This document shows positions 17,262 to 29,658 of a stretch of DNA of 32,000 nt, piece after piece. The notes under the pieces are model-generated. The model was given only the letters and a program-made list of their open reading frames with translations, made no database searches and was not told where the DNA came from. The position numbers and the translations under genes are program-made. The stretch covers positions 330,001 to 362,000 of the forward strand of contig CP061211.1 of NCBI GenBank assembly GCA_026016245.1, given 5' to 3'. This stretch comes from Candidatus Pacearchaeota archaeon (lineage in GTDB: Archaea; Nanobdellota; Nanobdellia; Pacearchaeales; UBA284). The number at the start of each line of letters is the position of its first letter. Within the stretch, counting starts at the first letter, position 1.

Positions 17262-18371
17262 TTATCTGAATGATTTTAAAATTTCTGAAATTGATTTTTC
17301 CTTTACATTTCCAATAACTTCTTTTCTTTCAGGATAATTTTCAAAAAATTGAGCATAACAATTACTTACATAACCATCATGGCTTATTCTTATTTGTTTA
17401 GTAAAAACATCATTAATAGGAAGATAATTTATTATAACTCTGTTAGTTCCATATTCATATTTATTAAATATAACCCCATATTCATCAATAAAAAGATTCT
17501 TTAAATCAATAGTTTCTTTTTCAACTAATTTATCCATTATTGATTTTGTTGTGTCATAATCATTTTTAATTATAATTTCAAGGTCATTGAATTTATTAAA
17601 ATCAAAAATTCTTCCATTGGCAATTTTTTGATATATTTCTACGATTTTTTCATCGGAAATATTTAATTCCCCATTTCCTTTTGGTGTTGGAATATATGGA
17701 GAAATAAGAAGATTTTTTAAACCAAATCCATAACTGGTTTTAAAAAATTCAGGTAAATTTTCTTTATTATGATTATTTAATGTATGAATAATAAATACTT
17801 TTTCTAAGAGCCTAGGATATTCATGCATTAGTTTTATATTATTTATGGTTTTTTCAAAATTACCTTTTCCTCTAATATAATCGTGTTTTTCTTTTGTTCC
17901 ATCAAGACTTATATCAATATAATTTGGCATAATTTCTGCTAGTTCTTTAATAATTTTTTTATTCATTAAAGTAGCATTAGTAACAATACCAAATCTTAAT
18001 TTAGAAATTTTTTCTCTTTTTTCAGCAAGAAAATATAGTAATTCTTTGGTTTTATCCCAACTTAATAAAGGTTCTTTTCCAACATTCCCAAATGTTAGTG
18101 CTCCCATATCAATCAATTCACCAAAAACATTTTTCCATTCTTTAATACTTAATTCATCATTTTTATTATTATAACCAACATAACAATGTCTACATTTGAG
18201 ATTACAAATATTATTAATAAAATAAGAAATATCTAATTCTTCTAATAAATTTTGTTTTGTAGAGAGAGAAGTATGACTATTACTAACACCGCCACAACTT
18301 CCTGAAAATCCTATTGCCATTTTTTTATGATTTGAGATTCCTCCATTGCTTCCTGAAAACCCCATTGCCAT
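17262..18371 (-). CDS. Radical SAM enzyme (SPASM/twitch-family-like core, no full auxiliary Cys cluster) with two N-terminal copies of the GFSGSxGG(I/V)S tag
   Basis: Contains CNLKCRHC (CX3CX2C), GNVGKEPLL, FGIVTNATL and ISLDGTKEKHDYIRGKGNFEKTINNIKL, all typical of peptide-modifying radical SAM families. The C-terminus has one Cys only (HDGYVSNCY). The track start at 18380 is TTG. The first ATG at 18371 gives MAMGFSGSNGGISNHKK-MAIGFSGSCGGVSNSH.... There is no in-frame ATG between the second tag and the Cys cluster. Confidence 0.85.
   Translation of the reverse strand: MAMGFSGSNGGISNHKKMAIGFSGSCGGVSNSHTSLSTKQNLLEELDISYFINNICNLKCRHCYVGYNNKNDELSIKEWKNVFGELIDMGALTFGNVGKEPLLSWDKTKELLYFLAEKREKISKLRFGIVTNATLMNKKIIKELAEIMPNYIDISLDGTKEKHDYIRGKGNFEKTINNIKLMHEYPRLLEKVFIIHTLNNHNKENLPEFFKTSYGFGLKNLLISPYIPTPKGNGELNISDEKIVEIYQKIANGRIFDFNKFNDLEIIIKNDYDTTKSIMDKLVEKETIDLKNLFIDEYGVIFNKYEYGTNRVIINYLPINDVFTKQIRISHDGYVSNCYAQFFENYPERKEVIGNVKEKSISEILKSFR
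18282..18371 (-). repeat. Two in-frame tag-coding repeats at the 5' end of the radical SAM gene (copies 3 and 4 of 4)
   Basis: Minus strand: ATGGCAATGGGGTTTTCAGGAAGCAATGGAGGAATCTCA (18371..18333) and ATGGCAATAGGATTTTCAGGAAGTTGTGGCGGTGTTAGT (18320..18282). Compare ATGGCAATACCAGGGTTTTCAGGAAGCAATGGAGGCATAAGT (18745..18704) and ATGGCAGTACCAGGGTTTTCAGGAAGCGGTGGAGGCATATCT (18561..18520). Confidence 0.9.
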
Positions 18372-18372
18372 T

Positions 18373-18561
18373 TTATTCAAATGATTGCAGAAGTTTCTCT
18401 AATTCTTTGACCCCTTTTTCAAAAATTGGTTTATATTGTTTGTCAACTTGTTCTGCCAATTTTTTATATTTAGTTATTCCAACTTGGACATCTTTTTTAA
18501 TCACTGTTCTATAAAAATCAGATATGCCTCCACCGCTTCCTGAAAACCCTGGTACTGCCAT
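18373..18561 (-). CDS. Small protein B (62 aa) with N-terminal MAVPGFSGSGGGIS tag; candidate radical SAM substrate
   Basis: ATG start 1 nt after the stop of protein A (TAA-A-ATG). The same TAAAATGGCA junction links it to the radical SAM gene. The tail aligns with protein A (D(I/V)Q, Y, L..L..S.E). Confidence 0.7.
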   Translation of the reverse strand: MAVPGFSGSGGGISDFYRTVIKKDVQVGITKYKKLAEQVDKQYKPIFEKGVKELEKLLQSFE

Positions 18562-18562
18562 T

Positions 18563-18745
18563 TTACAATTTATCTTCTAAGGAATTGAATAATTTTTTTA
18601 GATTTGAAATTGATTCTTTAAATAAAACTTTATATTGGATTTTTGATTCATACTGGTCAATTAACTTTTGGATATCCCCTTTCTTTAGCTTCCTATACGT
18701 TCTACTTATGCCTCCATTGCTTCCTGAAAACCCTGGTATTGCCAT
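18563..18745 (-). CDS. Small protein A (60 aa) with N-terminal MAIPGFSGSNGGIS tag; candidate radical SAM substrate
   Basis: ATG start. It is the first gene of the minus-strand cassette. It has a Gly/Ser-rich 14-aa N-terminus followed by a Lys/Glu-rich helical tail. The + ORF 18585..18767 is its antisense shadow. Confidence 0.7.
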   Translation of the reverse strand: MAIPGFSGSNGGISRTYRKLKKGDIQKLIDQYESKIQYKVLFKESISNLKKLFNSLEDKL

Positions 18746-21282: not shown

Positions 21283-22566
21283 TTAAAAAAATTCCAAGGC
21301 TTTTTTTAATTCTATATGTGTTTTTGCATAATTTTTCAATGTTTTTCCTTCCATTACTGCAGTCAGGGCTTGCCTTGCAGCTTTTGCTCCTCCAAATGTA
21401 CCTAAAGGATGGCCATGAATGCCTCCCCCCATTTGAATTATAATGTTTTTGCCTAAATGTTTTACAAGATAAGAAATATGCCCGGGATGAAGACCACCAG
21501 AACATACTGCAAAAGTAGGTTTGATATGATACCATCTTTGCTCTAACATGTGTCTTGATTCTAATCTATGGTCAAGGATCATTGATTGTTCCATTTCTTG
21601 ATCTAATCCAACAACTTCAGTCTTAGGAGTTTCCATTTTTCCTACAATAGTTCCTATATGGAGCTGATCTAAACCAATAAGTCTGGTTAGCTTTGCGATA
21701 ACAAGCATGCTGATTCCATGTCTTGGATTTCTGCTTAAGGCAGCATAACCTGCACGATGAGCATGTAATACTAACTTTAATTTTTCATTTTCTTCCCTAA
21801 GTGTCTGCAAAGCACCCCATCCACAAGAAACAATGTCAATCATAGCATACTCACAACCATGTTTCTTGACAAATCTTGCTCTTCTTAGCATTTCTTCAGT
21901 TTCTGCAGTTATATTTGGCATATACATCTTCTTTTCTCCTGTTTTTTCTTCAGCTTTATCTCTTGCTTTTAATGTTTCAATAACTCTAGTAAGAAATTTG
22001 TTGAAAGACTGACTAGATAAATTTTCATCATCTTTTACAATATCACAACCACCAATCCAAGCATTATAAGCAACTTGTGCATGTTCTTTCTCATTTAATC
22101 CTAATTTTGGCTTAATAATAGTTCCAAGAAGAGGCCTATCTTTAACTTTCAACAATTTCCTGACACCATAAATACCATACATAGGGCCTCTAAAACTCTT
22201 GATAATATTTTCAGGAAATTCTATATCCAACAATTTGAGATTTTTAATAGTCTTCATGCCAAAAATATTTCCTGCTATACTGCTTAAAATTTGTGGGATA
22301 TTGTTTAATTCAAAAAGAACAGAGGGATAGGCTATTTTGATGTAATAGCCTTTATTGCCTTTTATAGAGAAAACTTTTGCAACAAGTCTATCTATTCTTT
22401 TTGGAGCTTCTGTCACATCTGTCCAGGTTCCAATACTAGATTCAGAAGCTATGGCTCCAGCAGCTTCATGAGGCTTAATTTTTGAAGCAGGCTCCATATA
22501 AAATTCACATATGAGATCTGTCTTTTTTGGCTTATATTTTAAGTCAACATAATCAGTATACTTCAC
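21283..22566 (-). CDS. rbcL: RuBisCO large subunit, archaeal form III type
   Basis: Contains GGCDIVKDDENL (carbamylated Lys context), SIAGNIFGMK, LHAHRAGYAA, SGGLHPGH and GGGIHGHP. At 427 aa it aligns along its length with the Thermococcus form III enzyme as I remember it. GTG start. No small-subunit gene is present. Confidence 0.92.
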   Translation of the reverse strand: MKYTDYVDLKYKPKKTDLICEFYMEPASKIKPHEAAGAIASESSIGTWTDVTEAPKRIDRLVAKVFSIKGNKGYYIKIAYPSVLFELNNIPQILSSIAGNIFGMKTIKNLKLLDIEFPENIIKSFRGPMYGIYGVRKLLKVKDRPLLGTIIKPKLGLNEKEHAQVAYNAWIGGCDIVKDDENLSSQSFNKFLTRVIETLKARDKAEEKTGEKKMYMPNITAETEEMLRRARFVKKHGCEYAMIDIVSCGWGALQTLREENEKLKLVLHAHRAGYAALSRNPRHGISMLVIAKLTRLIGLDQLHIGTIVGKMETPKTEVVGLDQEMEQSMILDHRLESRHMLEQRWYHIKPTFAVCSGGLHPGHISYLVKHLGKNIIIQMGGGIHGHPLGTFGGAKAARQALTAVMEGKTLKNYAKTHIELKKALEFF

Positions 22567-22999: not shown

Positions 23000-23071
23000 T
23001 GGGCCTACCAGGATTCGAACCTGGATCCTCCGGTCCGAAGCCGGGAGTTCTATCCATTAAACCATAGGCCC
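23000..23071 (-). tRNA. tRNA-Arg (anticodon UCG)
   Basis: The minus strand folds by hand as GGGCCTA TG GTTT AATGGATA GAAC T CCCGG CTTCGGA CCGGA GGAT CCAGG TTCGAAT CCTGG TAGGCCC A. The acceptor has 7 bp, the T arm 5 bp with a TTCGAAT loop, and the D arm 4 bp. The anticodon loop is C-U-UCG-G-A. There is one C27.A43 mismatch. There is no encoded CCA and no intron. ORF 22974..23195 is spurious. Confidence 0.85.
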
Positions 23072-25944: not shown

Positions 25945-26883
25945 ATGATACCAGAAAAAGTTAGGGATTTGTTCAGAAAGCAACATTATGCTCTTGTTGG
26001 CAATCATAGCGCTGTTCAGATTTGTAGATGGACCAAGAAAAGTCTGCTTGATAAAGATGTCTGCTACAAGCAAAAATTTTATGGAATACAATGTCACAGA
26101 TGCTGCCAGATGGCTCCTTGTATTTCTTGGTGTCAGCATAGATGTGTTTTTTGTTGGCGTGCTATAGAATATACACTTGGAGATAAAATGCAAGGAAAAA
26201 TAGATGATCCAAAAGAGATTATTGATAAATGCATAGAAGCTCAGAAAAAACAACTTATAGGTTTCATGGGAAATTCTAAAGCTAATAAGATTAAGTTACA
26301 AGAAGCATTTCATCCAAAACATTTTGCAATCAGTCTTGCAGGAGAACCAACTATTTATCCAAAACTTAGCGAATTGATTAAAGAGCTGCATAGAAGGAAA
26401 ATAACAACTTTTCTTGTCACAAATGGCATGCTTCCTGAAGTTTTAGGAAAGATAGAAATGCCTACTCAGTTATATGTTTCAGTTGATGCACCAAATGAAG
26501 AACTTTACAAAAAAATAGACAAGCCAGTTACAGGAAAATGGAAAAATTTGATTGAAACTCTAAAACTACTGCCAAGATTAAAGACAAGAACTGTGATGAG
26601 GATAACTTGTATAAGAAATTTGAATATGATAGAGCCAGAAAATTATGCTAAATTTATTAAAATGGCTGAGCCAATGTTTGTTGAAATTAAAGGTTATGTT
26701 GCTGTAGGTTTTTCTAGAAAGAGGCTTGGGGTTAATTTTATGCCGCAACATTCTGAAGTTAGAGGGTTTGCAGAAAAAATTTCAAAGCATAGTGGTTATA
26801 AAATTATTGATGAAAAAGAAAATTCTCGTGTTGTCTTGTTAATGAAAGAAGATAGAAATCGTTTCATTAAGTTAAATGAATAA
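25945..26883 (+). CDS. taw1: 4-demethylwyosine synthase Taw1/TYW1 (radical SAM)
   Basis: Contains the CQHRCVFCWR radical SAM cluster, upstream Cys residues (CRWTKK, CYKQKFYGIQCHRCCQMAPC) for the second cluster, and LAGEPTIYP, LVTNG. Confidence 0.88.
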   Translation: MIPEKVRDLFRKQHYALVGNHSAVQICRWTKKSLLDKDVCYKQKFYGIQCHRCCQMAPCISWCQHRCVFCWRAIEYTLGDKMQGKIDDPKEIIDKCIEAQKKQLIGFMGNSKANKIKLQEAFHPKHFAISLAGEPTIYPKLSELIKELHRRKITTFLVTNGMLPEVLGKIEMPTQLYVSVDAPNEELYKKIDKPVTGKWKNLIETLKLLPRLKTRTVMRITCIRNLNMIEPENYAKFIKMAEPMFVEIKGYVAVGFSRKRLGVNFMPQHSEVRGFAEKISKHSGYKIIDEKENSRVVLLMKEDRNRFIKLNE

Positions 26884-27877
26884 AATCTTTTTGGATTTCT
26901 TTTCTCAGTTTAAAACTATTGGCCCATTTTGCATAAGCCTGCCAGCCCTGATAAGATTCAATCATTTTTTCATAAGACAGGAAGCCTATTTTATATTGCT
27001 CTATTCTTAATAATATATTTCTTATATTTCTCTTTCTCAACAGTTTGAAATAATAAAAATTCCTGAAGCCAACAAAATCAACTCCTTTAAATAAAGGAAT
27101 TACCCTAGATTTTTCTGGATGTAATTCCAACTTTAATTTTTCTTCTAAAAATTTACCAATATAAAATTTCCATATCTCAAGCTGAATTTTATTTTCATGT
27201 AAAATTACAAAATCATCAACATATCTAATATAATATTTTGTTTTTAATTGGTGTTTAACAAAATAATCAAGTTCATTAAGATAAACATTAGCAAAGAATT
27301 GGCTTGTCAAATTGCCAAGAGGCATGCCTTTTTCTTTAAAGCCGTTATTTAAAATCTGATTGATAAGCCACAAAACTTTTTCATCACTTATCTTCTTGCT
27401 TATTATATTCAATAAAATTCTATGGCTAACTTCCTGAAAATAATGCCTTATATCTGCTTTTAATACAAAACATGCTCTTGTATTATTCCTTGAAACTTTT
27501 CTCTTAAAAAAGTCAAATCTTTTCAAAGCAAATAAATTTCCCTTATTTTTTCTATTGGCACAACTATCACAAATGAAGGTTTTATCAAAAATATGCTCAA
27601 TAACTCTATAAACTGCATGATGAATGATTCTATCTCTAAAATTGGATTTACTTATTTTTCTTGTTTTTGGATCTCTCAAGATGAAAGTTTTTAATGGTTT
27701 TGGTTGATAGGTTTGTTCTTTAAGTTCTTTGTGTAAAGATAGTAAATTTTCTCTTAAATTACTTTCAAATTCAATAACATAATCTTTGCGAGTTTTGGGT
27801 TTTCTTGCTTTTCTCCATGCAAAGTATAAATTCCTTATAGAATAAATTTTTGGATAAAGATATTTTTGGGTTTTCAT
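26867..27877 (-). CDS. DGR-type reverse transcriptase
   Basis: From ATG 27877: MKTQKYLYPKIYSIRNLYFAWRKARKPKTRKDYVIEFESNL.... Motifs are RDPKTRKISKSNFRDRIIHHAV, LKADIRHYF, GMPLGNLTSQFFANVYLNELD (the LGxxxSQ motif characteristic of DGR RTs) and IRYVDDFVI (YxDD). The track ORF extends to TTG 28072 only because the in-frame TR contains no stop codon. Confidence 0.9.
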   Translation of the reverse strand: MKTQKYLYPKIYSIRNLYFAWRKARKPKTRKDYVIEFESNLRENLLSLHKELKEQTYQPKPLKTFILRDPKTRKISKSNFRDRIIHHAVYRVIEHIFDKTFICDSCANRKNKGNLFALKRFDFFKRKVSRNNTRACFVLKADIRHYFQEVSHRILLNIISKKISDEKVLWLINQILNNGFKEKGMPLGNLTSQFFANVYLNELDYFVKHQLKTKYYIRYVDDFVILHENKIQLEIWKFYIGKFLEEKLKLELHPEKSRVIPLFKGVDFVGFRNFYYFKLLRKRNIRNILLRIEQYKIGFLSYEKMIESYQGWQAYAKWANSFKLRKEIQKDFIHLT

Positions 27878-27922
27878 ATCATTAATAAATATAATATGGT
27901 TTTCTGAAGTCCCAGAAGAGAC

Positions 27923-28007
27923 CATTCCAAACACCCTGTTGTCGTTGTTGAGGTTTCTGTCGTTGCCATTAAGGTCTGAGTCATTATCAGGATTCCTGAA
28001 CCACAGG
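27923..28007 (-). repeat. DGR template repeat (TR)
   Basis: Minus strand: TGTGGTTCAGGAATCCTGATAATGACTCAGACCTTAATGGCAACGACAGAAACCTCAACAACGACAACAGGGTGTTTGGAATGG. It contains 8 AAY (Asn) and 5 GAY codons. It aligns with 28370..28460, with all of about 22 substitutions at TR adenines. Confidence 0.85.
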
Positions 28008-28207
28008 ACATCTATAGCCAGTTTACCACAACAGAATTTATTTCTGCCACCACCAATCCAGGTTTCGTACAAAAACTACTTGCTGTTTTGATTGAATTTT
28101 ATGACTTAAAATTAATTTGAATAATGTGCTAATAAATTGGCATGTGGCCTCTTCTATTTTAAAAATAGAGCTGAGGCAAAACTAAAAAACAAGAAGGATT
28201 TAAGAAT

Positions 28208-29014
28208 TTATTGTCTAAGCTTATGAATAAGATTCTCTAAATTTTTTGTTTGTTCTGGTTTTAAGAATTTTCCTAATCTAGCAATTTCTTTTTCTGCATT
28301 TTTTAAATCTGACAAATTATAAGCCAAACCTTTTTGCTGACGCGAACTGGCTTCGCCAGTTTCTCCTAACACCCCAAACACCCTGAGGACGCCGTCGTCG
28401 AGGAGGCCCCTGCCGATGCCACCAAGGTCCGAGCCACCACCAGGACCCCCGAACCACAAGTAATTAATCACAGTTCCTTTTTGTTTATCAACATATGGAG
28501 AATTGATTGGATAGAAGGTGATTTTATTCTGGGCAAATTTATCAAAATATTGGGTCTCTACATCTTGAAAAAGAGTTTCTGCAGTTTCACTGCCTTTCTT
28601 AATACTAAATCTGCTTCTTTCAGGAAGAAATACTGCCCTTCTTTTTTCTGGCTCTTTATTTTTATCTTCTTCTGCAAATTTAGAATACATATCATAAATC
28701 CCCAAGTCTTTTGTAACAAAATAATATCCATTTCTGTTAGCTTGAACTGCTTTTTCAGCCATTTTTAAGTCTTCTACTAAAGGAGAAATCATTGCTAGAA
28801 TAATAGGAGATTTTTTAGCATAAATAGGTGCATGGCATGTTCTTGTGCTATCTGTTGAGCCGCCATTAATTCTCATATAAGCACAATCTCTCACACTAAT
28901 AGGATATTTTGCCCCTGCTTTTTTTAATGTTTTTAATTGTTCATCAAAAGGAGCATAAACTCTTATAATTTCTCCTAAACCTTTTACTTTTCCAATATGT
29001 TTTACTTTTGCCAT
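28208..29014 (-). CDS. DGR variable (target) protein, no signal peptide; VR encodes aa 186-215 of 268
   Basis: ATG start with BRE/TATA 25 nt upstream. The VR-encoded segment LWFGGPGGGSDLGGIGRGLLDDGVLRVFGV matches the TR-encoded LWFRNPDNDSDLNGNDRNLNNDN--RVFGM. It is followed by a 50-aa helical tail. The N-terminal 185 aa has no motif I recognise. Confidence 0.85.
   Translation of the reverse strand: MAKVKHIGKVKGLGEIIRVYAPFDEQLKTLKKAGAKYPISVRDCAYMRINGGSTDSTRTCHAPIYAKKSPIILAMISPLVEDLKMAEKAVQANRNGYYFVTKDLGIYDMYSKFAEEDKNKEPEKRRAVFLPERSRFSIKKGSETAETLFQDVETQYFDKFAQNKITFYPINSPYVDKQKGTVINYLWFGGPGGGSDLGGIGRGLLDDGVLRVFGVLGETGEASSRQQKGLAYNLSDLKNAEKEIARLGKFLKPEQTKNLENLIHKLRQ
28345..28361 (-). promoter_or_regulatory. 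GC-rich hairpin 8 nt 3' of the VR (candidate DGR target-recognition element)
   Basis: Perfect inverted repeat AACTGGC-GAA-GCCAGTT (7-bp stem, 3-nt loop) embedded in the codons for ETGEASS. The TR copy has no equivalent sequence at the same offset. Confidence 0.6.
28370..28460 (-). repeat. DGR variable repeat (VR)
   Basis: Minus strand: TGTGGTTCGGGGGTCCTGGTGGTGGCTCGGACCTTGGTGGCATCGGCAGGGGCCTCCTCGACGACGGCGTCCTCAGGGTGTTTGGGGTG. This is the most G+C-rich stretch in the window. It is identical to the TR at non-A positions and 6 nt longer than the TR. Confidence 0.85.
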
Positions 29015-29033
29015 GTTTCTTATAATAAAAAAG

Positions 29034-29050
29034 AATTTATAAATCTTTCG
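29034..29050 (-). promoter_or_regulatory. BRE/TATA promoter of the DGR target gene (leaderless spacing)
   Basis: The minus strand reads CGAAAGA-TTTATAAATT, with the TATA centre about 25 nt upstream of ATG 29014. This closely matches the CGAAAGG-TTTATAAATA box upstream of tuf (21235..21254). Confidence 0.5.
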
Positions 29051-29116
29051 TTTTTGTTGTTATTTGAGAGAGGCTACAAAATAAAAAGACTAGGACTCAC
29101 AACAGAAAAGACAGGA

Positions 29117-29341
29117 TTATGAAGTTTGACTAATATTTTTGATTACTTCATCTATACATTTCTTACAGTAAACATTTCCATTAATGAAAATTCCAGTTTC
29201 AATATGTTCCATACACTCTGGACATGTTCGTGGATTAACAGATTTTTCAGAATTGTAAACATTAATGAAGTCTCTTACCAAATATTTAATTGCAGCTTTA
29301 CGTATATCATATTTGCTTCCTATCCTAATTTCCTTAGCCAT
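29117..29341 (-). CDS. Small zinc-ribbon protein (CPEC...CKKC)
   Basis: 74 aa with two CxxC pairs 20 residues apart (TCPECMEH...VYCKKCIDE). ATG start. The + ORF 29126..29344 is its antisense shadow. Confidence 0.55.
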   Translation of the reverse strand: MAKEIRIGSKYDIRKAAIKYLVRDFINVYNSEKSVNPRTCPECMEHIETGIFINGNVYCKKCIDEVIKNISQTS

Positions 29342-29391
29342 TAATTTACTAGACTAAAAAACTTTATAAAATTAGTTGTGTTTGGATTGTT

Positions 29392-29658
29392 ATGATAGAG
29401 GTGATAATTGGTTTTATTGGGATGTTTTTAATCTTGCTGGCTTTCTTTATGAATCAAATACATAAATGGAAAACTAAAAATCCTATTTATGACATTGTTA
29501 ATTTTTGCGGAGCTTTATTATTAATTATTTATTCTTATTTGATAAAGAGTTGGCCTTTTCTAATCCTTAATTTAATCTGGCTTGTTGTTTCTTTTAGAGA
29601 AGCTTTGGTGGATATTGAAGGGAGAGAGAAAGGAACAATTGGATATAAAAGAAAATAA
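29392..29658 (+). CDS. Small 3-TM membrane protein
   Basis: 88 aa with three hydrophobic helices (IIGFIGMFLILLAFFM, IVNFCGALLLIIYSYLI, FLILNLIWLVVSF). ATG start. Confidence 0.55.
   Translation: MIEVIIGFIGMFLILLAFFMNQIHKWKTKNPIYDIVNFCGALLLIIYSYLIKSWPFLILNLIWLVVSFREALVDIEGREKGTIGYKRK

Follow-up and report, generated by a model that had tools for sequence, protein, structure and literature searches.

The closest described relatives of the system studied here are the chromosomal diversity-generating retroelements (DGRs) of Nanoarchaeota from DUSEL4, in which target gene, template repeat (TR) and reverse transcriptase (RT) gene follow each other in this order. The keyword-retrieved passages of the papers on these elements report the initiation of mutagenic homing (IMH) sequence TGGGGT, its TR counterpart IMH* TGGAAT and hairpins with a GRA triloop within the target gene (PMC4372165), and describe the target AvpA as a protein of 256 aa with its variable repeat (VR) at residues 181-203, followed by a tail of 46 residues; the hairpin of AvpA lies in its coding part, and its IMH codes for an RFxGV strand (PMC5006420). 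Here, we analyzed a stretch of 32,000 nucleotides (the window; positions 330,001 to 362,000) of the 710,724-bp contig CP061211.1 from a Candidatus (Ca.) Pacearchaeota archaeon, a member of the DPANN archaea, for which a complete DGR had been proposed from the sequence alone (the original prediction). Our analysis supports, with a probability of roughly 90%, that the locus is a complete, chromosomal DGR of the nanoarchaeal/DPANN type which diversifies the ligand-binding surface of an AvpA-like protein with C-type lectin fold.

With the nanoarchaeal systems, as far as the retrieved passages describe them, the locus shares the chromosomal location, a DPANN host, the order target-TR-RT, the TGGGGT/TGGAAT pair, a GRA-triloop hairpin in the target gene, an internal VR and a tail of about 50 aa. 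Like AvpA, its target has about 260 aa, no signal peptide, no detectable sequence family and a predicted C-type lectin fold. It differs from these systems in that the sequence of its target shows no detectable homology, and in an insertion of two codons in the VR. The element is ordinary for its lineage and of a kind already published with the nanoarchaeal DGRs of 2015; as a DGR alone it changes little, since the type has been catalogued in DPANN archaea and candidate phyla radiation (CPR) bacteria since 2015-2017. Modestly new is the Rfam motif RT-16 as a probable 5′ module of the RNA in a clade of DGRs without the accessory protein Avd. An RT-16 RNA beside the TR goes unmentioned in the keyword-retrieved passages of the two papers on nanoarchaeal DGRs (PMC4372165, PMC5006420).

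The DGR of Bordetella phage BPP-1 (mtd-avd-TR-brt) has in common with the present one the adenine-specific transfer from TR to VR, the RT family, template codons rich in AAY, the IMH/IMH* pair, an inverted repeat after the VR and a target with C-type lectin fold. In contrast to BPP-1, the element in the window has no Avd, is chromosomal, holds a VR that is not C-terminal and leaves a spacer of only 45 nt between TR and RT; moreover, the structured spacer of BPP-1 (Rfam RT-10) stands 3′ of the TR (PMC5737381), whereas RT-16 stands 5′ of it. In gene content, the locus matches the Architecture A DGRs of Wu et al. (2018, PMC5758913), which have the order target-TR-RT and no avd, HRDC, MSL or CH1 gene; that survey sorts the elements solely by their protein genes, leaving RNA modules out of account. 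With retrons (msr-msd-RT) only a layout is shared, namely a structured non-coding RNA directly 5′ of the template on one transcript with the RT; here, the RT falls outside the retron clade, the product rewrites a gene and there is no evidence for branched multicopy single-stranded DNA.

A DGR-type reverse transcriptase

The RT is encoded on the minus strand, as are all other parts of the element (target gene, VR, RT-16 RNA and TR), at 27877..26867. It starts with an ATG at 27877, has 336 aa and contains the motifs GMPLGNLTSQ and YIRYVDD, in line with the LGNLTSQ and YVDD that had been pointed out at first; a motif 4 that ends in SQ is diagnostic of DGR RTs. The protein matches Pfam RVT_1 (E = 1.2e-16), and its best match among solved structures is the DGR RT of the Bordetella phage (8ub7, E = 1e-40), aligned over residues 5-325 of 336. 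Homologues are numerous, with more than 7000 at E ≤ 1e-20 that are annotated mostly as DPANN archaea and in some cases as Patescibacteria; those of 65-76% identity are annotated as Pacearchaeota, Woesearchaeota, Nanoarchaeota and some Patescibacteria. Among phage records, the DGR RT of the archaeal virus ANMV-1 comes out best at 42% identity, and all 172 matches stay below 60%.

The reading frame of the RT remains open upstream across the whole TR, up to a TTG at 28072, which yields an open reading frame (ORF) of 401 aa (28072..26867). The TR copies coding sequence, contains no stop codon and is in frame with the RT. Gene callers could over-extend the RT; the profile of the target family matches the extension 27878..28072 (E = 2.8e-11). 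The 336-aa form starting at ATG 27877 is the one supported by homology and is the same as the protein deposited at NCBI (P0160), which, like the target protein (P0001), is annotated as Ca. Pacearchaeota.

Adenine-specific differences between template and variable repeat

The TR (28005..27923, minus strand) comprises 83 nt with 28 adenines and ends 45 nt before the ATG of the RT. Its position and its match to a VR in the upstream gene are as originally predicted, while the predicted length of 85 nt holds only if two ambiguous bases are counted, in which case the distance to the ATG is 43 nt. The VR (28458..28370, minus strand; 89 nt) has a GC content of 69% in a window of 31% GC, codes for residues ~186-215 of the 268 residues of the target and encodes LWFGGPGGGSDLGGIGRGLLDDGVLRVFGV. 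When both repeats are aligned with one gap of 6 nt, they differ by 22-24 substitutions, depending on the placement of the gap, and every one of them falls on a TR adenine; the two repeats agree at all 55 non-A positions and at 4-6 of the 28 adenines. This bears out the claim of about 22 substitutions at adenines only. The changes are A to G in 19-20 cases, A to T in 2-3 and A to C in one. Elsewhere on the plus strand of the window, the first 55 nt of the TR meet at least 17 non-A mismatches at every position, such that the match of TR and VR goes far beyond chance. Recounting the TR codons gave AAC five times, AAT three times, GAC four times and GAT once, i.e., the same eight Asn (AAY) and five Asp (GAY) as before, and 25 of the 28 adenines occupy codon positions 1 or 2. 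By calculation, 28 adenines allow for 4^28 (~7e16) DNA variants.

A difference in length between the repeats had gone unnoted: the VR is longer by 6 nt (two codons). The difference lies within AAC repeats, where the gap fits anywhere in the block CTC-AAC-AAC-GAC-AAC-A. Since the 14 nearest target homologues have the length of the TR at this point, the two extra codons are an insertion in the present VR allele; the VR segment CTC-GAC-GAC-GGC-GTC-CTC fits the pattern NNC-NNC-NNC-NNC-GNC-NNC, as expected from AAC-AAC copied twice. Length differences between TR and VR are found in 7% of DGRs, are mostly multiples of three, adjoin AAC in 74% of the cases and have been ascribed to slippage of the RT (PMC5758913). 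With such AAC-adjacent indels on record, we regard the one seen here as a known by-product of homing and not as decay.

The same pattern of substitution is found in related loci (numbered with the prefix L), whose RTs are 55-77% identical to the one in the window. Thirty-five such loci were scanned with Rfam; 33 of them carry RT-16, and repeats were searched in 32 (all but L025, where RT-16 is cut by the contig end) and in the window. The cassette is conserved, with targets, RT-16, TR and RT all on one strand, and in an adenine-tolerant repeat search each of the 32 related loci and the window proved to have one or more VRs upstream on that strand, with up to four in some cassettes. Over 38 TR/VR pairs, 57% of 980 TR adenines are changed compared with 1.0% of 2212 non-A positions. 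The substituted adenines of the clade become G in 67%, T in 27% and C in 5% of the cases, to which the fixed difference between IMH and IMH* (AA to GG) contributes part of the excess of G. Because this spectrum is also rich in G, the G bias in the window is a property of the clade. In L026, L035 (second VR) and L041, the ungapped match of TR and VR ends midway and the IMH sequence returns further on, which suggests that length differences occur in other members of the clade, too.

The 3′ ends of the repeats carry the expected signals. The VR ends with the IMH core TGGGGT (28371..28376, minus strand) and the TR with IMH* TGGAAT (27929..27924, minus strand); in the relatives, the pair is of the type GGGGTA/GGAATA. 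Eight nucleotides 3′ of the VR and inside the coding sequence of the target, a hairpin AACTGGC-GAA-GCCAGTT (28345..28361, minus strand) forms a stem of 7 bp in both the minimum free energy and the centroid structure, and in at least 30 related loci stem-GAA/GTA-stem hairpins follow most VRs on their 3′ side. By analogy with the nanoarchaeal DGRs, it is presumed to be a target-recognition element. Altogether, the DGR-type RT, the TR/VR pair with changes at A only and the IMH/IMH* pair uphold the assignment of the locus as a DGR.

The spacer between TR and RT (27878..27922, minus strand; 45 nt) contains CTGGGACTT at 27915..27907, a version of the clade's CAGGAYTT motif. By eye, in 18 loci, a motif of this type sits 10-30 nt before the start codon of the RT, whatever the type of TR. 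The motif may serve in priming, in base pairing or as a signal for translation. We also looked by eye for pairing of this motif, or of the TR ends, with RT-16. All candidates were ambiguous (near-palindromic CCWGG or AT-rich), and we make no claim of such pairing.

An RT-16 RNA directly 5′ of the template repeat

No Avd-like ORF had been seen in the gap of about 200 bp between target gene and TR, and the element had been called minimal in composition. An Rfam scan of 26500..29500, however, identified in this gap a full-length RT-16 RNA (RF03019; 28176..28009, minus strand), which scores 99.8 bits against a gathering score of 50, covers model positions 1-158 of 158 and is also the sole such match over the window. 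The RNA starts 31 nt past the stop codon of the target, and 4 nt separate its end from the TR. The composition is thus not minimal, because RT-16 fills the gap and the IMH/IMH* pair and GAA-loop hairpin of the clade are present in addition.

RT-16 is found upstream of the RT and on the same strand in 33 of the 35 related loci. The exceptions are L027, which has no match, and L031, where a match lies on the other strand and only downstream. There is one copy per cassette, even in cassettes with 2-4 targets, and in most related loci the 5′ end of the TR falls within -8 to +7 nt of the 3′ end of RT-16. The helices of the RNA covary: 18 of 20 base pairs predicted by RNAalifold show compensatory double changes among 28 sequences of the clade, in a MAFFT alignment that was not fitted to structure.

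A putative TATA box, TTCTTAAAT (28198..28206, minus strand), is centered ~26 nt upstream of RT-16 position 1. When the 50 nt preceding RT-16 were compared across 33 loci (the window and 32 relatives), they showed a box of type TTTATAAA or TTTATTAA at -32 to -23, with mostly at least ~90% A/T and almost no G/C. From the archaeal TATA spacing of this box, we infer that RT-16 has its own conserved promoter box and that transcription starts at RT-16 position 1. The target gene has a TATA-like box of its own, TTTATAAA (29043..29036, minus strand), read from the sequence and centered ~26 nt before the ATG; this archaeal promoter geometry suggests a leaderless target mRNA.

On balance, RT-16 is probably a working part of the retrohoming RNA and, as such, the 5′ module of an Avd-less clade. 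This is suggested by its near-universal linkage to TR and RT, the single copy per cassette, the covarying helices, and the position of the RNA, which coincides with the predicted start of transcription as well as with the 5′ boundary of TR/VR homology. More tentatively, RT-16 might stand in for Avd, as a 5′ RNA that is made from its own TATA box, constitutes the first 160 nt of the TR-RT mRNA, recruits or positions the RT and sets the 5′ end of the complementary DNA (cDNA); we give this extension somewhat less than even odds. If it holds true, DGRs of DPANN archaea would run on a core of RNA plus RT that resembles retrons, with a structured RNA 5′ of the template, versus the 3′ RNA plus Avd of Bordetella.

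The motifs RT-1 to RT-19 were published as motifs near RT genes only (Weinberg et al. 2017, PMC5737381). RT-10 alone was tied to a DGR, that of BPP-1, where it lies between TR and brt; a DGR origin of other RT motifs was speculated upon, and RT-16 was described without such a link (PMC5737381). In the literature searched, we found no paper that mentions 'RT-16' together with 'diversity-generating'. By immediately preceding the TR of Avd-less DGRs in the window and in 33 of 35 relatives, this orphan Rfam motif gains a concrete genomic place: it abuts the 5′ end of the TR in a large clade of DGRs free of accessory proteins.

Cassettes without an Avd gene

Avd is present in about 74% of DGRs and thus not universal, and cassettes without it make up Architecture A, 29% of 372 DGRs (PMC5758913). 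That no ORF for an Avd-like protein exists in the gap between target and TR or nearby had been stated from the outset, and family searches of the neighboring small ORFs agree: no Avd family was found in the small ORFs near the target in the window, which encode a 74-aa zinc ribbon and an 88-aa membrane protein. Likewise, 106 small ORFs (60-230 aa) from 33 cassettes contain no Avd Pfam family among the 25 of 102 families listed, and among these no family is common to more than 3 of the 106 ORFs. An all-against-all BLAST of the small ORFs of the cassettes yielded no syntenic family, only truncated targets, fragments of RTs and ORFs antisense to TR or RT-16. In the loci of close RT homologues, no Pfam family is recorded for any gene called around target and RT or between the two. 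Cassettes of this RT clade normally show the order target-TR-RT and lack Avd. In the CPR/DPANN set of the survey, 90% have an avd on the reverse strand between TR and RT (B3; PMC5758913); the 45 nt available here leave no room for an avd of this type.

Two kinds of candidates for an accessory gene were rejected. The 74-aa zinc-ribbon ORF (29341..29117, minus strand) lies directly upstream of the target, has a CPEC...CKKC pattern and gives a weak RING-finger match (E = 0.0018) under the cut-off; it has no counterpart in related cassettes. Antisense ORFs of 60-79 aa in L008 (1090..1278), L021 (4796..4978) and L033 (4701..4940), all on the minus strand, resemble each other only through the conserved DNA of RT-16 and TR. 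ORFs of this kind may misleadingly look like an accessory gene on the reverse strand between TR and RT.

An AvpA-like target protein

The target gene (28208..29014, minus strand) encodes a protein of 268 aa with the VR in its interior and a helical tail of ~50 aa. No match to it was found in Pfam, NCBIfam or the sequences of the PDB. It has 14 close homologues, and the profile built from these 15 sequences finds 629 representatives at E ≤ 0.001; the members of the alignment vary at the block YLWFxxPDxxSxLDGxxRxLxxxxRxFGV. The AlphaFold (AF2) model has a mean predicted local distance difference test (pLDDT) score of 88.8, with lower values over the VR and the lowest ones at residues 219-230 just downstream of it. 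In a Foldseek search with this model, the only significant match in the PDB is 5ioo (E = 2.4e-5, probability 1.00, template modeling (TM) scores of 0.49/0.60), i.e., AvpA from 'Accommodation of massive sequence variation in Nanoarchaeota by the C-type lectin fold'; further, weak matches are C-type lectins of animals. The structural alignment with AvpA has 14% identity, and RVFGV at the IMH resembles the RFxGV of AvpA. Judged by its model, the target is an AvpA-like variable protein with C-type lectin fold. By sequence, it belongs to a family distinct from AvpA: the 15-sequence profile retrieved no PDB chain, and neither it nor the protein alone retrieved 5ioo in PDB sequence searches up to E = 10.

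The target was originally called unusual. A family of 629 representatives, the match of the model to AvpA and the same combination of internal VR and tail speak against this; given the parallels in fold, length, place of the VR, tail and motif, it is the expected kind of target for a DPANN DGR.

Some homologues of the target have VR blocks that look diversified and no RT within 6 kb, namely in L001 (P0007) and in L002-L004 (P0008). In L002, a family B DNA polymerase is the direct neighbor of the homologue; 5.5 kb away, there is a Trm5/Taw2 methyltransferase, as in the window. Such RT-less homologues could be remote targets, orphaned targets or a case of conserved synteny.

A possible course of retrohoming

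Combining these observations, we propose the following mechanism. Driven from the TATA box ~26 nt upstream of RT-16, a transcript would comprise RT-16, TR, the 45-nt spacer and the RT ORF. The RT would be translated from this same RNA, and the structured RT-16 module, not an Avd protein, would be its handle on the template. Synthesis of cDNA would begin near IMH* (TGGAAT) at the 3′ end of the TR and run towards its 5′ end, with misincorporation at template adenines, as the pattern of TR/VR differences suggests. RT-16 may set the 5′ limit of the transferred sequence, since TR/VR homology stops within a few nt of its 3′ end. The cDNA would then replace the VR at a site picked by the IMH (TGGGGT) and the GAA-loop hairpin, by analogy with the DGRs of the Bordetella phage and of nanoarchaea. 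The two-codon insertion in the AAC-AAC-GAC-AAC stretch would reflect slippage of the RT during the last homing event. The element is likely active at present, as all its parts are intact and TR and VR differ at adenines alone, apart from what slippage can account for.

Roughly one quarter of all DGRs function in the absence of Avd; the locus and its at least 30 relatives bear on how they do so. The unit of RT-16, TR, spacer and RT measures ~1.3 kb, which together with the 17-nt hairpin and the IMH makes a compact construct. If the need for an accessory is met free of protein, such DGRs would be attractive for engineering targeted mutagenesis.

Several observations weigh against a working, Avd-free DGR of this design. 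Among metagenome contigs of the Joint Genome Institute (JGI), exact strain-specific 28- and 30-mers from the hairpin flank and the TR had no match. Three pairs of independent records with identical RTs (L005/L006, L009/L010 and L011/L012) also have identical VRs; differing at contig ends only, they are uninformative. In Bordetella, the one biochemically studied DGR, the functional RNA structure is 3′ of the TR and not 5′ (PMC8867640, PMC5737381). The case for the role of RT-16 is one of position and conservation alone, and the folding z-score of the 76-nt stretch with the hairpin, -1.33, is not exceptional on its own. The search for Avd in the source genome covered 32 kb of the 710-kb contig, such that an Avd or more VRs may sit elsewhere. 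Finally, one TR codon, AGA, can mutate to TGA, and some variants are therefore not productive.

Against this background, three other explanations have to be considered. That the RT is of the retron or group II intron type and the repeats are an ordinary duplication of a gene fragment is invited by the public records, where many homologues of the RT are named 'retron-type reverse transcriptase', and by the E-value of 6.5e-43 against the NCBIfam group II model. Yet, the underlying score of 147 bits is far under the cut-off of 300 of this model, the retron St85 model reaches 42 bits at a cut-off of 235, and NCBIfam group II, retron and DRT models alike leave the RT far under their cut-offs. Among solved structures, those of group II intron RTs trail at E ~1e-18 or weaker, 70 bits behind the Bordetella RT; in Rfam, the window matches RT-16 but neither group II intron nor retron RNAs; and ordinary divergence cannot yield at least 22 changes at adenines with none elsewhere. 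This reading is already refuted. Alternatively, the element could be a fossil, i.e., one that diversified its target in the past, no longer homes and has left the VR as a frozen allele. That the metagenome word scans and record pairs revealed no population heterogeneity would agree with this, as would the 6-nt difference in length between VR and TR, the target homologues without a nearby RT in other genomes (L001, L002) and the RT genes split by frameshifts in some relatives (L047, L057). However, the RT ORF is intact with its catalytic motifs, and so are RT-16, IMH/IMH* and the hairpin; the in-frame indel beside AAC is a known product of homing, and both homology arms remain. The absence of any non-A difference at 55 positions leaves very little time since the last homing, and we consider a fossil quite improbable.

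The third explanation concerns the accessory function: an Avd-like protein encoded elsewhere could act in trans, and RT-16 would be only a leader or regulatory structure, or a 3′ end signal of the target mRNA. In favor of it, most of the contig lies beyond the 32 kb examined, Avd proteins are poorly conserved (PMC5758913), and the first RT-16 hairpin, 31 nt past the target stop, could act on the upstream mRNA. On the other hand, the 33 cassettes share no recurring syntenic small ORF and, among the 25 of 102 families listed, no Avd, and Wu et al. saw no distant avd in genomes whose cassettes lack one (PMC5758913). RT-16 travels with the TR-RT unit and not with the targets, in one copy even where several targets are present; its long-range helices covary, and the TR boundary tracks its 3′ end. 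We therefore regard an Avd in trans as rather unlikely and favor RT-16 as the 5′ module of the retrohoming RNA.

As to the split RTs, each consists of two overlapping ORFs (L047, 1722..2749; L057, 5001..6081), with RT-16 and an adenine-biased TR/VR pair still in place; they may be decaying copies or assembly errors.

Genomic context

The 3′ end of the RT gene meets the convergent gene taw1 (25945..26883), which codes for a protein with Wyosine_form and radical SAM domains. The two genes share 17 nt, with the RT stop lying 17 nt inside taw1, which reproduces the overlap given originally. Beyond these, the window codes for FtsZ, GatD, a primase-like Toprim protein, EF-1alpha, RuBisCO, DNA ligase, TrmB regulators and Trm5/Taw2. 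No integrase, phage or virion genes were found among the genes of the window; together with the 710-kb Ca. Pacearchaeota contig, this agrees with the earlier view that the element is chromosomal and not borne by a phage or plasmid.

Apart from the DGR, in a region at 17262..18745 (minus strand), two small ORFs (18373..18561 and 18563..18745) that begin with MAVPGFSGSGGGIS and MAIPGFSGSNGGIS lie upstream of a radical SAM/SPASM gene (17262..18380). Their motif GFSGSxGG(I/V)S is also found twice in the called N-terminus of the radical SAM/SPASM enzyme. The arrangement looks like a precursor/maturase cluster for ribosomally synthesized and post-translationally modified peptides (RiPPs), in which the start of the enzyme has possibly been mis-called. 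Furthermore, the window harbors a tRNA gene (23000..23071, minus strand) and a gene for the large subunit of RuBisCO (21283..22566, minus strand), which we take to be form III-like from its context.

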